Of a DNA stretch of 64,000 bases, positions 37,434 to 44,962 are shown piece by piece. The stretch lies in assembly GCF_009931435.1 (NCBI RefSeq), contig NZ_CP043414.1. One strand, given 5' to 3'. Below the pieces are notes generated by a model. That model did no database searches, had not been told where the DNA came from, and saw only the letters and a list, made by a program, of their open reading frames with translations. This stretch comes from Escherichia coli (GTDB lineage Bacteria > Pseudomonadota > Gammaproteobacteria > Enterobacterales > Enterobacteriaceae). A program made the position numbers and the translations under genes. Every line of letters begins with the position of its first letter. Within the stretch, counting starts at the first letter, position 1.

Positions 37434-39458
37434 CTATAACCACCCCGGCCACAGCTCCTGTAATGGCTCGTTTTGAGTCTCTTTAAGCCGTCCGTTGCGG
37501 TAAATCAGAGCGCCCTGACCAAATCTCAAACCACTACCCCGCAGGAGAATAGCTATTTCTTCATCAGAACCATCAAAACCCCGACTGCGTAATTCCAGTT
37601 TTAACCGTCTGCGGGTTCCCCCTTCCGTACAGTTATTGACAGAACTCCAAGGGGCGGCGTTGCCGCCAGAAAAACCCGCCTCCGCTGGCGCTGCGGCCAA
37701 CTTCGCAACCTTCTGCCACTTCACCAGGCGCGTACATACCGCTGAATCTGGAATCAATGGAGAATAGACACCCTGAACGCGCTGCACGTCCTCTGCGTAT
37801 TCATTGCCCTGCTCTGTGATTTCATAAGCCAGACGAACAACCAGATCACGACGGGCAACCAGTGCGCCACCCTGCTCCTGGGTGTATGCCGCCCAGTCCC
37901 CAACATCCGCAGCAGCCAGAACCGCATCCATTCTGCGGTCAGTCAGCACCTGATCACGTAACCGGCGCAACTCGCGCCAGACTGTCACTGGCGCACCGCC
38001 AATCTGCTGAAACTGGCGAATGCGCCAGCGTGAAGCCCATGCAGAAACGGACTTGGCCATATCCCGCAGGTTCTCCCCTGTTTCGTCGTCCTGCTCACCA
38101 TCCAGCGCAAACCCATCAATGTTTTTGGATATGTATTTGGCGATGTAACCCGTAGCCGAACCTTTAGCGGGATCGATGGCTTCAACATGGAAACGTGCCT
38201 TTAGCGCGTTTGGCGTTTGCAGTTCTTCGGAGTCGGTAATTCTGGCGTGATAGCAAAGAATATCGCGCACGGTATCCACATCACCAGGACGCATAAAAAG
38301 CAGCATGTGCCAGTGCGGTGTCCCATCGTGGTGAGGCTCTACCACACGAAAACCAAAAACATGGATACCAGCACGGGAAATAGCGGCGCGGGCTTTCGCC
38401 CATACACCGCATAAGTAACGCTGGGTGTCCTGCGGGGTGCAGCCATCCCACTGTGAAACAAAGCCCCCTTTGCTGTGTACCGCATGGAATCGCGATGGCG
38501 CAGTGATGGTGTAAAACTCACCGGCCAGCCCTTCTTCATTGGCCATATCTTCAAATCCTCTCATTCTTACCATTAGCTCACAGCGACGGATCGCCGGATT
38601 AGCAACGCTGCGGTGCACCATGCTGTCCAGCGCAATACGCAGCCCTTCATCATTCAGCAGGTCAAACTTTTTGAAGAACTCAAGGTTCCGCTTTTTCTGG
38701 TCTATCCATTCGCCCAGGGTTTTACGGGACACATAAGCGCTGGCCGCTTTCTGTACTTGCCCCACTGCAATGGCCATATGCTCACGCTGCATATCCCGCG
38801 CCCGCTTAAGACGCAGATACCACCATTCTGGTGCCATCATGCGGAGGATCCCGGATTCAGCCTTACGCGTTTCCAGTTGCCCGCCATTAGCTTCATGTTC
38901 AGCCCAGTACGGCGGCGGATTGTTCAGCATCAGGGAACACGTGCATAAATGGCGGTAAGACTCCAGCGTACGGCGGCGCAGCTCTGCGGCATCGTCAGTG
39001 CTGCCCACAAACTGATTGGTAAAGTCATACAGTGACTGGGAGATCCAGCCAGATATCTGGCCAGCCAGTTTTTTGAGTTCCGGGCGGTCAAGTGACGGCA
39101 GTCGCTCCAGCGACTTACCGAAAGGAAGATCAAGTGCATCAGCGGCCAGTTTGTAACGTGCAGCCACTTTTCGCAGACGTGGCAATACATTCCCGCCGAT
39201 AGTTTTGCGCAGGAATGTATTGGCACGGCGACGCCCGTCACGACCAGCCAGCAGCTTTTCGTAACGGTTGCCAAAATACCCGGCTAACCAGTCGGGTATT
39301 TCATGCAGGTACTGGGATCGCCATTCATAATCCTGTGGGTTTACAGCCCGCAAACGGCGTTCTGTGATCGTTGCATCTGAAGGAGTGCCAGGCGCAAAGG
39401 TTTCACGCCGCCAGGCATTGACGGCGTGGTGTTGGCCAGGCTCCAGCATATCAACCAC
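37434..39458 (-). CDS. Replication initiation endonuclease (P2 gpA / 186 A family)
   Basis: 674 aa; size and position in early operon downstream of dam. Confidence 0.65.
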   Translation of the reverse strand: MVDMLEPGQHHAVNAWRRETFAPGTPSDATITERRLRAVNPQDYEWRSQYLHEIPDWLAGYFGNRYEKLLAGRDGRRRANTFLRKTIGGNVLPRLRKVAARYKLAADALDLPFGKSLERLPSLDRPELKKLAGQISGWISQSLYDFTNQFVGSTDDAAELRRRTLESYRHLCTCSLMLNNPPPYWAEHEANGGQLETRKAESGILRMMAPEWWYLRLKRARDMQREHMAIAVGQVQKAASAYVSRKTLGEWIDQKKRNLEFFKKFDLLNDEGLRIALDSMVHRSVANPAIRRCELMVRMRGFEDMANEEGLAGEFYTITAPSRFHAVHSKGGFVSQWDGCTPQDTQRYLCGVWAKARAAISRAGIHVFGFRVVEPHHDGTPHWHMLLFMRPGDVDTVRDILCYHARITDSEELQTPNALKARFHVEAIDPAKGSATGYIAKYISKNIDGFALDGEQDDETGENLRDMAKSVSAWASRWRIRQFQQIGGAPVTVWRELRRLRDQVLTDRRMDAVLAAADVGDWAAYTQEQGGALVARRDLVVRLAYEITEQGNEYAEDVQRVQGVYSPLIPDSAVCTRLVKWQKVAKLAAAPAEAGFSGGNAAPWSSVNNCTEGGTRRRLKLELRSRGFDGSDEEIAILLRGSGLRFGQGALIYRNGRLKETQNEPLQELWPGWL

Positions 39459-39651
39459 GGTTAACCCACTTGCGCCAGAAATCTATCAGGAAGGCCACTA
39501 CCAGCGGTAGCCAGAAAACCGCACTCAGAGTGATTAACCCTAAGTCCTCAGCGTCGTGATCAAATTCATCCGGGCATTCGTCCCATAAGAGAAAAGCGAA
39601 AGTGATACAGGCAAACAAGGCATAAAAGCCGGTGATAATTTCCGTCATCAT
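39451..39651 (-). CDS. Small hydrophobic protein (2 predicted TM helices)
   Basis: 66-aa ORF overlapping dam stop and gpA-like start. Confidence 0.3.
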   Translation of the reverse strand: MMTEIITGFYALFACITFAFLLWDECPDEFDHDAEDLGLITLSAVFWLPLVVAFLIDFWRKWVNRG

Positions 39652-40517
39652 GCCACCACCGCCCGAACATCGATCGCAGGGTTAGCAGGTGACTTAAGAA
39701 TCAGCTCAGCGGCCATTTTCTGGCTTGCAGCTGCTGCACCCACACTACGTGGCGCATTTACCCGAACAGCGTCGAATCCTGCATACAGGTAATGCACCAT
39801 TTCCAGATCGCTATTTGACGCGACAACCTTAATCCCACGCTCAGTCAGGCGGCGCAGCTTACGCGCCAGCCGTCCCTGATCCATGTGCGAAAAACCGCGC
39901 TCATGGTAAGCGGTGAAATTATCGCTATCAGTCAGGTAAGGCGGATCACAATAAACAACGTCATGCCCGTCCCTTACCAAATCAAGCGTTTCTGAATAGT
40001 GGGCAGTAATGAACGTTGCACGTTTCGCTTTTTCAGCAAAAGCGCGGATTTCATCAGCAGGAAAGTAGGTTTTTTTGTACTTACCAAAAGGAACATTGAA
40101 CTGGCCACGGCGATTGTATCGGCACAGGCCATTGAAGCAGTGACGGTTCAGATAAAGAAAACGCGCCGCAGCTTCCACAGATTCAGAACCAAAGGATTTG
40201 CCTGATTGGTTGAAGGCATCACGCACCGCGTAATAGAAAACAGCGCGGCTTTCTTCATTGCCTAATGAACCGGCAGAAAATAAAGCCTCCAGCTCAATGA
40301 GCAATGCATCAGTCTGATAGGCCATTGTCTTATACAGATTAACCAGGTCGGGATTCACATCAGCGATCAGGTACTCGCCATAATCCGTATTCATCATGAC
40401 AGCACATGAACCGGCAAAAGGTTCTATCAGGCGCTTGCCCTCCGGCAGATGGGGAAGCAACTGCGGCATAAGGCGGGCTTTACTGCCCACCCACTTAAGC
40501 GGAGTTTTTACTGCCAT
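39648..40517 (-). CDS. DNA adenine methyltransferase (Dam-like N6-adenine MTase), prophage-encoded
   Basis: 289 aa with N-terminal FAGS (EPFAGSCAV) SAM motif and DPPY catalytic motif (VVYCDPPYL). Confidence 0.8.
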   Translation of the reverse strand: MAVKTPLKWVGSKARLMPQLLPHLPEGKRLIEPFAGSCAVMMNTDYGEYLIADVNPDLVNLYKTMAYQTDALLIELEALFSAGSLGNEESRAVFYYAVRDAFNQSGKSFGSESVEAAARFLYLNRHCFNGLCRYNRRGQFNVPFGKYKKTYFPADEIRAFAEKAKRATFITAHYSETLDLVRDGHDVVYCDPPYLTDSDNFTAYHERGFSHMDQGRLARKLRRLTERGIKVVASNSDLEMVHYLYAGFDAVRVNAPRSVGAAAASQKMAAELILKSPANPAIDVRAVVA

Positions 40518-40741
40518 GCTGCACCGCCTTTACTGCAAATCGCTGCGGCTTCTTCGCGGATTAACTCAACGATTTCCGTTGCGCTTAAACCTTCATTGAC
40601 GGCATGGGTGGCCAGCTTATCCAGGCGGGTGGAACACAGATCAGCAGCAGCTGCTTTACCTTCCTGCGTGGCTTTGGTGAGCATAGCCAGCAGGTCAGTG
40701 CCTGATTTTGTTGCGGGTAAATCCTGACATGTCATGTGCAT
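40508..40741 (-). CDS. Hypothetical phage early protein (77 aa)
   Basis: ORF track; operon with overlapping stop/start; no motif recognised. Confidence 0.3.
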   Translation of the reverse strand: MHMTCQDLPATKSGTDLLAMLTKATQEGKAAAADLCSTRLDKLATHAVNEGLSATEIVELIREEAAAICSKGGAAWQ

Positions 40742-40808
40742 TTTGGTTTCCTTAAGGCAAAAGAATCCCCGGCCACCTAAGCTGTGGCCAAAAAATTCAG
40801 GTTGTTAA

Positions 40809-41210
40809 TTAGTGAAAAGCGGGTTGTACAGTGACTGCGGAATGATTCGGTGCTGGAATAAGGTGCAGCTCGTACGTTGTCCGCCACCACTCCTGGATCA
40901 GTGCTTTAATCTCGCCAACACCCAACGCCCCGGCCGTATAGAAAATTGCGCGGATTCCGGCAATTGCTTCAATTTGCGCTTCTTTGCTCTCTGCCTCGCG
41001 GTACACGCAGCACCAAAAAGCGGCATTTATCGCCAGCCAATGACGCGGGTTAGTCATGTGTTCGGTGTCATTGAAGAAGAAAGGATGCAAAGCGATACGG
41101 CCATTTTTACTGGTACTTTTCTCAGCAAAAGCCACAGCGTAATTGTGAGGAACTCCCCACGCGGCCAATTCAGCCCCTAACGATTTACCTTCAACGGAAA
41201 TAATGGCCAT
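40809..41210 (-). CDS. Hypothetical phage early protein (133 aa)
   Basis: ORF track; co-directional early operon. Confidence 0.35.
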   Translation of the reverse strand: MAIISVEGKSLGAELAAWGVPHNYAVAFAEKSTSKNGRIALHPFFFNDTEHMTNPRHWLAINAAFWCCVYREAESKEAQIEAIAGIRAIFYTAGALGVGEIKALIQEWWRTTYELHLIPAPNHSAVTVQPAFH

Positions 41211-41638
41211 CAGAGATTCCCTTGTTGTTGCAACTTATGGACGATGTGAGGCGCGATAATCATCTGCGGCCCCCGATTGTTAATGATTGGATAAACCCGC
41301 TTTATCGGACGGTTCACGGTACTTTTAGAAAAATCACTGTCACGCAATGACCCGAATCCGTTCATCGTCAGACGCGCTCGGGAAATGCCGCAACGCAGTT
41401 GAATCATTGCCCGGTAATCCAGACGCTCAAACAGCTCCCGCCAGCAGCATTTGCTTAAGTGGGCTTTGAATACACTCAAGCCAGAATTAACAGCGGCGGC
41501 ATGGAGAACTACCCCGCGCCATTCAGGTGTTAATTTGTCCCACCAGTCAGCAGCCTCACTACTGGTATTGAAGTATTTGCGGCGAATCTTTTTAAGCTGT
41601 TCCAGTCCGCGCTGTTGCTGTTCCTGGCTAATTGCCAT
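41210..41638 (-). CDS. Hypothetical phage early protein (142 aa)
   Basis: ORF track; start adjacent to stop of upstream small ORF. Confidence 0.35.
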   Translation of the reverse strand: MAISQEQQQRGLEQLKKIRRKYFNTSSEAADWWDKLTPEWRGVVLHAAAVNSGLSVFKAHLSKCCWRELFERLDYRAMIQLRCGISRARLTMNGFGSLRDSDFSKSTVNRPIKRVYPIINNRGPQMIIAPHIVHKLQQQGNL

Positions 41639-41647
41639 AACCCCCCC

Positions 41648-41821
41648 CTATAGCCCCATCAGGCGACGCCACCACGGACGGCGCGGTTGCTGACCATTGA
41701 ATTTGTACATATGACTTGGATTCCAGCGCTGACCAGTTGGCAGTTCGATCCAGCCAGTGGAACCGCTTGGCAGCTGCATAGCCGGTGATTCATTTTTCAG
41801 ATAAGTGACGAACACTTTCAT
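41648..41821 (-). CDS. Hypothetical small phage protein (57 aa, MKVFVTYLKNESPAMQLPSG...)
   Basis: Below ORF-track cutoff; ATG 41819-41821 with gagggag RBS 10 nt after CII-like stop. Confidence 0.35.
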   Translation of the reverse strand: MKVFVTYLKNESPAMQLPSGSTGWIELPTGQRWNPSHMYKFNGQQPRRPWWRRLMGL

Positions 41822-41830
41822 GGTGCTCCC

Positions 41831-42334
41831 TCACATCAAGCCGGTCGCATTAGCCGTAACCAGATCCACCGCTGCGGCCAGAACGGGCGCAGACTGGATA
41901 CGGCTTTCAACGGTATAAGCCAGCACGGATAAGCTGCGGATGGCATCGCGAGCGCGATCCAGAATTTGTGTACGGCGGGCGGCGGTCATATGACCAGTTG
42001 ATACGGCTTCCCCAGCAATTGCACCCACACAGGCTGTGGCACTTAGTGCACACAACTGCATGTTGCCTTCTGTGGCATTGTTCACCGGTACGGATGGGAG
42101 ACAGTTAATCTGCCCCAGCATTCCATCCAGTAAACGTGCATCTTCGGTGTAATCCGTAATAGCTAAAAGCTCGTCACAGGTTAAACGGTGCGGCTGTGCT
42201 GGATTCAATTTGTTACGCAGAATCTGCGGCCTCATACCAACGGCAGCGGCTACATCTTCCAGATTGTGTTCAATTGCAAATGCTCGGCAAGCCGCATCAA
42301 AGTGAGCATGTTTAGAGGTCTGGTAATCAAACAT
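41831..42334 (-). CDS. CII-like phage regulatory protein (186 CII / CP76-type)
   Basis: 167 aa, position immediately downstream of apl/cox-like gene as in 186. Confidence 0.45.
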   Translation of the reverse strand: MFDYQTSKHAHFDAACRAFAIEHNLEDVAAAVGMRPQILRNKLNPAQPHRLTCDELLAITDYTEDARLLDGMLGQINCLPSVPVNNATEGNMQLCALSATACVGAIAGEAVSTGHMTAARRTQILDRARDAIRSLSVLAYTVESRIQSAPVLAAAVDLVTANATGLM

Positions 42335-42364: not shown

Positions 42365-42619
42365 TTACGCGTTAAGCGAAATATCACATTCGCTTAACGC
42401 CTGAATGGTAAGCGCGGCCATGTTGACTTCGACCAGGCCTTTCTTTTGCTTACCCTTCGGCTTGATAGGTAATTTTCCGTATTCGATCAGGTTCCTAGCG
42501 GTTTCTTTGTTAGTACCAGTACGGCGGCAATACTCGTCTAGAGGCAGGTATGGTTCTGGGATGATGATTGTAATGTTTGGACGCATAAGGCAAACTCCAC
42601 AAGTTAACCTGTACGGCAA
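42365..42619 (-). CDS. Apl/Cox-like or Cro-like small DNA-binding switch protein
   Basis: 84-aa ORF (alt start MRPNITIII at 42586) divergent from CI-like repressor gene. Confidence 0.4.
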   Translation of the reverse strand: MPYRLTCGVCLMRPNITIIIPEPYLPLDEYCRRTGTNKETARNLIEYGKLPIKPKGKQKKGLVEVNMAALTIQALSECDISLNA

Positions 42620-44380: not shown

Positions 44381-44962
44381 CTAACCTGTTTTCAGCAACA
44401 ACCACTGGAGGAAAACAACAACAATGTAGATTAAAGTTACAGACCCCAGAAACAGCAATAGTTGACAAAAATGAATAAAGGCCGGATGGTGAAGTTTTTG
44501 AGGAACCAAGGTTATATTTCGTGCAATTCCTTCTTTACATCTCACTGTGAGCAACGCGGGTAAGTCAGTATTTATCGACATAACCTCACATCGTATAGAT
44601 TCATGTGGTGCAAGATAATCAAACAACATAACCTGCCTTTCTTCGGCATCACTCTTAATTGTGTAATGCCTTGAGGGCCAAATGTTTACGTACATAGGTG
44701 GGTAATTGAAAATTATCTCCACATTAGTAGCAGGTTCTTTTCCTTCGTTTTTAAAGGCATAGGATTTTGTATGCACCACCTGTTTTGCCTTAACAATTTC
44801 ACCTTCAGCATTACGTAACGGCTCGTTAATTAAATAGCTATATTGGTGAAGCTCTCCATAGCAAATTTTCGCTCCATTTTTAAAAATCTTATTGATAAAT
44901 AAGGTAAAAACAGGAACGAAAAGTGCAAATATTTCTTTCCCATACTGAGTAAGTATATTCAT
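44381..44962 (-). CDS. Hypothetical 193-aa protein with C-terminal TM helix; orphan cargo adjacent to int
   Basis: ORF track; A/T-rich; hydrophobic C-terminus AFIHFCQLLLFLGSVTLIYIVVVFLQWLLL; convergent with int; weak RBS. Confidence 0.4.
   Translation of the reverse strand: MNILTQYGKEIFALFVPVFTLFINKIFKNGAKICYGELHQYSYLINEPLRNAEGEIVKAKQVVHTKSYAFKNEGKEPATNVEIIFNYPPMYVNIWPSRHYTIKSDAEERQVMLFDYLAPHESIRCEVMSINTDLPALLTVRCKEGIARNITLVPQKLHHPAFIHFCQLLLFLGSVTLIYIVVVFLQWLLLKTG

Follow-up and report, generated by a model that had tools for sequence, protein, structure and literature searches.

Four conserved small genes in the probable early operon of a 186-like Escherichia coli prophage, one of them a likely remote relative of P2 gpB

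The four small open reading frames (ORFs) that lie between a cII-like gene and dam in a stretch of 64,000 nucleotides of Escherichia coli DNA (contig NZ_CP043414.1 of assembly GCF_009931435.1; hereafter the window) probably form the conserved middle of the pR-type early lytic operon in a prophage of the 186-like Peduoviridae, one that resembles Quadragintavirus and adjoins mntS in the E. coli chromosome. The best-supported explanation of the four genes is an ordinary module, composed of a division inhibitor, a diverged gpB-like accessory protein (142 aa, here called X), one unexplained protein (133 aa, here called Y), and a dispensable homolog of orf80. Two of the four genes already carry a name in RefSeq, so that the finding is for the most part an ordinary one. 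What it adds is modest: the likely link of X with gpB of phage P2 and the alternative contents of the slot in which X and Y are found.

RESULTS

Organization of the locus

The four ORFs are co-directional on the minus strand at positions 40508-41821 and, in the direction of reading, encode proteins of 57, 142, 133, and 77 aa, as seen in the ORF list and in the raw sequence. The features of the region are the following, from the upstream side of the operon to dam:

42365-42619, Cox/Apl-like gene, upstream of cII
41831-42334, minus strand, gene of the cII family (Pfam Phage_CP76, E = 1e-46)
41648-41821, minus strand, fil homolog, 57 aa, the first gene 3′ of cII
41210-41638, minus strand, X, 142 aa, likely related, as a divergent protein with one repeat, to the N-terminal repeat of P2 gpB
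40809-41210, minus strand, Y, 133 aa, conserved protein with no function assigned
40756-40794, minus strand, terminator-like hairpin with T tract, between Y and the DUF2732 gene
40508-40741, minus strand, DUF2732 gene, 77 aa, putative positional ortholog of 186 orf80 and P2 orf80
39648-40517, minus strand, dam, D12-class Dam methylase (Pfam E = 8.9e-66)

The genes for the CI repressor and the integrase are divergent from the early operon, on its upstream side. On the other side, 3′ of dam, there is a 66-aa ORF and then an A-type replication endonuclease. The order in the operon is apl/cox, cII, fil, X, Y, a tR1-like terminator, DUF2732, dam, the 66-aa ORF, and the A replicase.

In the initial annotation, made from the letters and the ORFs, four small co-directional genes had been placed between a cII-like regulator and dam, and the coordinates given there are exact. 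Their tight packing holds for the 9-nt spacers (between the cII stop and the fil start, and again between the fil stop and the X start) and for the overlaps of 1 nt between X and Y (TGATG) and of 10 nt between DUF2732 and dam, but not for the 67-nt gap with its hairpin, which separates Y from the 77-aa gene and makes the packing uneven. A Shine–Dalgarno-like motif is present at all four starts (GAGGGAG, AGGGGGGGG, AAGGGAA, and AAGGAAA), including that of the 57-aa ORF, which had been credited with a good ribosome-binding site.

With phage ESSI2_ev015 as the reference (86% identical; dS between 0.28 and 1.18), the dN/dS ratios are 0.026 for fil, 0.142 for X, 0.029 for Y, and 0.082 for DUF2732. 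With Shine–Dalgarno sites and low dN/dS at every one of them, the four ORFs are therefore genuine protein-coding genes under purifying selection. The identical four CDSs occur in the RefSeq annotation of a 99.9% identical prophage, that of E. coli MFDS1016424, adjoining mntS; of 5,426 complete genomes of this species, 31 contain the block.

The fil homolog and the DUF2732 gene

The 57-aa protein matches Pfam PF10893, Phage_186_Fil (E = 6.6e-9; 35.8 bits for a cut-off of 25), in a profile alignment that covers only residues 1-38. Against PHROGs, the matches are to phrog_7623 (3e-27) and to phrog_816, a “cell division inhibitor” (7.8e-8), and BLASTP aligns the N-terminal 33 aa with 186 Fil at 36% identity. 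Fil has 75 residues in 186 vs. 57 here, and the two are similar in the N-terminal half only. In RefSeq, the product is named “phage filamentation protein Fil family protein”. The gene is found directly 3′ of cII, likewise in 186. Judged by these matches, the 57-aa ORF is a member of the family of 186 fil. In 186, Fil blocks cell division when overexpressed (record NC_001317); upon derepression of the present prophage, its Fil would likewise prevent septation.

The 77-aa protein matches Pfam PF10809, DUF2732 (E = 1.6e-12; 47.7 bits for a cut-off of 25), as well as phrog_128 (8.6e-22), and is 36% identical to the DUF2732 protein of 186. Here, in 186, and in P2, the DUF2732 gene is the first one after the terminator. 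The profile matches place the 77-aa ORF in the family of 186/P2 orf80, of which it is the ortholog as far as position indicates. In the 186 record, the DUF2732 protein is called “not essential”, and its counterpart here would equally be a dispensable accessory. The absence of any recognizable motif, as first reported for the four genes, is thus wrong for two of them.

The terminator between Y and DUF2732

The best terminator-like site of the region is a hairpin (40794-40766) followed by TTCTTTT. It consists of a stem of 11 pairs, then TTCTTTTGCC, and the stem GGCCAC/GUGGCC folds. The gap between Y and DUF2732 aligns with the annotated tR1 of 186 and with the terminator located after gene B in P2. 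The three have in common CGGGG-ATTCTTTT, i.e., CGGGG-(A/T/C)TTCTTTT, whereas the sequences of the stems differ. The fold z-score of the whole gap is only −1.15 and, therefore, the folding energy alone is not decisive for a terminator. On the basis of the alignment, the hairpin of the gap corresponds in position to tR1 of 186 and to the terminator 3′ of gene B in P2.

Comparison with the early operons of 186 and P2

In the early operon of 186 (apl-cII-fil-dhr-tR1-orf80...A), the order of apl, cII, fil, terminator, DUF2732, and A is the same as here. The fil and DUF2732 genes belong to the same Pfam families in both and the terminator regions can be aligned. The differences are that dhr in 186 is replaced by X and Y, and orf81-84 by dam and the 66-aa ORF. 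In the early operon of P2 (cox-orf78-B-terminator-orf80...A), the slot of X, as the last gene of a replication type upstream of the terminator and of DUF2732, is that of B. From the gene order and the alignment of the terminators, the operon is therefore colinear with those of 186 and P2, with X and Y in the dhr/B slot. The comparison with 186, suggested at the outset as a check, agrees with the early operon of a 186-type phage that had been proposed, both in the cII-fil order and in the terminator.

Between fil and the terminator, different Peduoviridae carry dhr (186), a short B (Yersinia), X and Y (here), or B (P2) in this slot. In a prophage of Edwardsiella, the slot is filled by Y and an unrelated 72-aa gene; there, the order is Fil, Y, the 72-aa gene, and DUF2732, and nothing gpB-like is encoded anywhere from int to A. 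No gpB-like gene was found in phage 186 either, and such a gene is therefore not universally needed in this group of phages.

Within the lineage, 144 out of 151 related viral contigs retain the order fil-X-Y-DUF2732, at identities that fall to ∼30% for X and to 40-45% for Y. Among the 80 contigs seeded with Y, 78 have it, and the other two each miss one end of the block. Among those seeded with distant X members (a narrower set of seeds than the widest distant-X alignment), the order is found in 66 out of 71; the remaining five show no detectable match to Fil or DUF2732, or miss Y because of a contig end or a rearrangement after X. The proteins of these distant-X contigs are 28-33% (X), 39-56% (Y), and 48-66% (Fil) identical to those of the window. 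Metagenomic and genomic contigs agree with the conserved order. Given its retention in 144 of 151 contigs, the block is a core module of the whole lineage and not a variable accessory island, while across Peduoviridae the slot is filled alternatively.

X and the N-terminal repeat of P2 gpB

X matches a single PHROG, phrog_33841, whose function is listed as unknown, and gave no match in Pfam, NCBIfam, or PADLOC. All its close relatives are “hypothetical” proteins of enterobacterial prophages, and only 43 relatives were retrieved when 1.84 billion cluster representatives were searched with a profile. The predicted structure is all-helical (pLDDT 66). X evolves faster than its neighbors (dN/dS 0.14). 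For the members of the X family, the Pfam search gave two sub-threshold matches to DUF5347 only; the copy of Pfam used was without PF26815, and P2 gpB itself gave no match in it.

The relation to gpB appears between profiles. In the Yersinia phage vB_YenM_324, the homolog of X is annotated as “replication protein GpB” (an annotation that is not discussed in the Yersinia phage paper) and aligns with the X family with a probability of 97.8% in hhalign. With the same program, the X family aligns with the N-terminal half of gpB at 83.9% (E = 7.7e-6), and the broad X alignment with the gpB alignment (A4 vs. A5) at 69% (E = 4.4e-5). Residues 11-83 of P2 gpB match phrog_14551 (1.2e-11), phrog_602, and phrog_5349 (1.7e-5). 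Over the equivalent region, the distant X members match phrog_14551 (12 of 22, the best at 8.6e-9) and phrog_5349 (11 of 22, the best at 3.6e-10). The invariant positions of the X and gpB families, R..HA, E-[LM], and F, fall in register.

With HMMs of the X family, every one of the 32 sequences of gpB or short B obtains a score, of 8-24 bits, and with the HMM of distant X, 31 of the 32 exceed the highest score among 9,600 shuffled decoys (11.6 bits). When the 393 stop-to-stop fragments of the window are scanned with the X-family HMM, X alone scores. When the early region of P2 is scanned blind in six frames, the ORF of gpB comes first with 18.8 bits, against 9.2 for the next one. The direct comparison of X with P2 gpB gave no match, the narrow X-family profile did not reach the gpB family (E = 0.08), and the gpB HMM gives at most 11.5 bits on the distant X members. 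No match was obtained when the PDB was searched by sequence with the profiles of X, Y, and gpB.

The N- and C-terminal halves of gpB align with each other (hhalign 83%, E = 8.7e-6), and gpB looks like a tandem duplication of a repeat that X would hold once. P2 gpB (PF26815/phrog_235) has 166 aa and two repeats, and it has in common with X a core of ∼65 residues with R..HA, E-[LM], and F. X, with its 142 aa, is made of one repeat with an insertion of 11 residues and an unrelated tail, without the C-terminal half of gpB or the two-repeat architecture of ∼166 aa. A single-repeat gpB-like protein occurs also in the Yersinia phages vB_YenM_201.16 and 31.17, where the short “GpB” (DUF5347) is encoded directly after fil, as X is. 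This short protein (103 aa) is clearly nearer gpB than X, with a link of 97.4% to gpB (E = 1.3e-11) and of 67% to the X family (E = 5e-5), and no Y gene follows it. The gpB-type genes (82 phage records) and the X-Y genes (11 records) are found in disjoint sets of records.

From four independent lines (the bridging PHROG families, the alignments between profiles, the HMM scores relative to decoys, and the short GpB of Yersinia phages), we consider it likely that X is homologous to the N-terminal repeat of gpB over the core of ∼65 residues, with moderate support for a link that is remote. P2 B is a DnaB-binding protein required for the synthesis of the lagging strand (note in the P2 record; a passage in PMC12661323 citing Odegrip et al. 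2000), and the same passage lists it among helicase loaders. A function shared by X and gpB, namely, binding of DnaB and enabling of lagging-strand synthesis, is a suggestion that we make tentatively, by analogy. X would then bind the host DnaB helicase in the manner of P2 gpB: once the A protein has nicked the origin, X would help to load DnaB on the displaced strand, which would allow lagging-strand synthesis.

DISCUSSION

Y and the alternatives to an ordinary module

Y matches phrog_3935, a family whose function is listed as unknown in PHROGs; among distant relatives, none of the other three genes is as conserved as Y. Its predicted structure is confident (pLDDT 88, pTM 0.83) and consists of a small β-α-α-β-β unit followed by three long helices. 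In sequence and profile searches, including the PDB, no relative of known function was detected for Y. The searches of NCBIfam and of PADLOC, which holds defense systems and not anti-defense proteins, gave no matches. Remote-homology searches and structure prediction, which had been recommended, have thus produced the link of X to gpB and, for Y, a confident model without a relative of known function. The literature on fil/dhr, on DUF2732, on the PHROG families, and on anti-defense in P2-like phages yielded nothing specific to the four genes.

Two relationships were considered and rejected. The first, Y as the counterpart of the C-terminal repeat of gpB, found no support in HMM and profile tests with decoys; a short motif of Y, IRAIFYTAGA, resembles RRTLFMHAGL of the gpB C-terminal repeat (hhalign E = 0.3). 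Nor did X or Y show homology to 186 Dhr (phrog_6069), a host DNA replication inhibitor encoded at the same position of the operon and without sequence similarity to them: X gave no alignment and Y an E of 12.

A host-directed or anti-defense role is possible for Y, which may work as a partner of X or else, on its own, as an early protein directed at the host and encoded where 186 has dhr. We consider it rather unlikely that Y is a host-directed protein with a new fold (Dhr-like or a defense inhibitor), or that X and Y form a two-component helicase loader in replacement of the two-repeat gpB throughout a large branch of the 186-like phages.

Among the more specific alternatives, X and/or Y could be anti-defense or host-inhibitory early proteins made at once from pR. 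They are small and early and, being upstream of the first terminator, are therefore expressed first. The slot holds different genes across Peduoviridae, Y is without known relative, and X diverges faster, both in its dN/dS of 0.14 and in its identity within the distant group (28-33% vs. 39-56% for Y). On the other hand, no homology to any characterized inhibitor was found in the databases searched (PHROGs and PADLOC among them), Y is under strong purifying selection, and X is likely homologous to a replication protein. Moreover, unlike typical accessory anti-defense loci, the genes do not vary within the lineage, either in presence or in order. We regard such a role as unlikely.

Of the candidates for host takeover or anti-defense that the initial annotation saw in the cluster, the fil homolog does represent a host-takeover function, while anti-defense is unsupported, with the gene order kept as it is. 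Orthology to known early proteins of 186 or P2, which had been named as the finding that would speak against such candidates, is seen for fil and DUF2732 and, at a remote level, for X with gpB. A lack of conservation, named for the same purpose, is not borne out (dN/dS of 0.03-0.14 and the order in 144 of 151 contigs).

X and Y could also constitute a replication accessory complex of two subunits, in which Y would replace the second repeat of gpB. Such a complex would fit the single copy, in X, of the repeat that is doubled in gpB, the overlap of the X stop with the Y start, and the presence of Y in every contig with X except L158 (contig end) and L160 (rearranged), although this co-occurrence may simply reflect common descent. 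Y, however, is unlike either half of gpB or X (E = 0.15 or worse), phages with a short B do without Y, and Y occurs without X in Edwardsiella; a complex of this kind is improbable. Finally, that Y is a functional counterpart of Dhr unrelated to it in sequence, i.e., an inhibitor of host DNA replication, is also improbable: Y lies directly upstream of a tR1-type terminator, as dhr does, and its occurrence without X in the Edwardsiella prophage suggests an independent function, but it is twice the size of Dhr, has no similarity to it, and position is the sole argument.

In hundreds of 186-like prophages of enterobacteria, the “hypothetical” protein encoded after fil is probably related to the helicase loader B of P2, as a diverged form with a single repeat. 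The alternative contents of the slot (dhr, short B, X and Y, or B) offer a testable reason why some phages of the P2/186 type may depend on the host loader DnaC and others not. Y, well conserved, confidently modeled, and without known relatives, would be a sensible choice for a functional screen on a small scale.

P2 gpB and orf78

Two adjacent genes of the P2 record are considered here:

L005:1792-1962, P2 orf78 (56 aa), the gene preceding B
L005:1959-2459, P2 gene B

The two halves of gpB, the DnaB-binding helicase loader of P2, resemble each other. Residues 1-94 (N-terminal half) can be aligned with residues 95-166 (C-terminal half) (hhalign, 83%, E 8.7e-6), and the motif R..[FL][HM]HA[GQ]L is present in both. 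Judged from its sequence, P2 gpB looks like the product of a tandem duplication within the protein. At the gene before B, the N-terminus of orf78 weakly resembles, in the LLRNESP region, the Fil proteins, the family of the 186 cell-division inhibitor Fil (9.6 bits, p 5e-5 with the fil HMM; E 0.015 with BLASTP), and, therefore, the colinearity of P2 may extend to the orf78/fil gene.

Variants of the X–Y module

Two sequences depart from the usual order of the 142-aa protein X (a probable remote relative of the N-terminal repeat of gpB) and the 133-aa protein Y:

L012:3766-4897, module variant of an Edwardsiella tarda prophage
L160:2091-4151, IMG/VR contig with X but no Y after it

In the Edwardsiella tarda prophage, Y comes directly after Fil; an unrelated gene of 72 aa and then DUF2732 follow, and neither X nor a gpB-like gene is present from int to A (8.4 kb). 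The IMG/VR contig is the sole untruncated one where Y does not come after X, the sequence 3′ of X being unrelated; such an arrangement may reflect an insertion or rearrangement, or else an assembly that is chimeric.

Terminator region

Window 40742-40812, terminator region (alignment A6 of P2, 186, and the window lineage)

Common to the three is a TAATTAA upstream of the hairpin and, on the 3′ side of the hairpin, an invariant CGGG inside a CGGGG-ATTCTTTT-like stretch; the sequences of the hairpin stem differ between them. On this alignment, the conservation of the region is more than a plain intrinsic terminator would need. A link to anti-termination, which the 186 record mentions, is possible.

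Integration site and other prophage ORFs

Two further ORFs occur in the prophage:

Window 39451-39651, minus strand, 66-aa hydrophobic ORF between dam and the A replicase, overlapping each
Window 44381-44962, minus strand, 193-aa ORF at the prophage end, flanked by the integrase gene and by mntS of the host

The 66-aa ORF is hypothetical in RefSeq and has no match in Pfam, PHROG, NCBIfam, or PADLOC. The 193-aa ORF, for which nothing matched in Pfam or PADLOC, has hydrophobic N-terminal and C-terminal segments and is possibly a cargo (moron) gene. No tRNA gene was found in the whole window (1-64000). The integration site of the prophage adjoins mntS, whereas 186 integrates in ileY.
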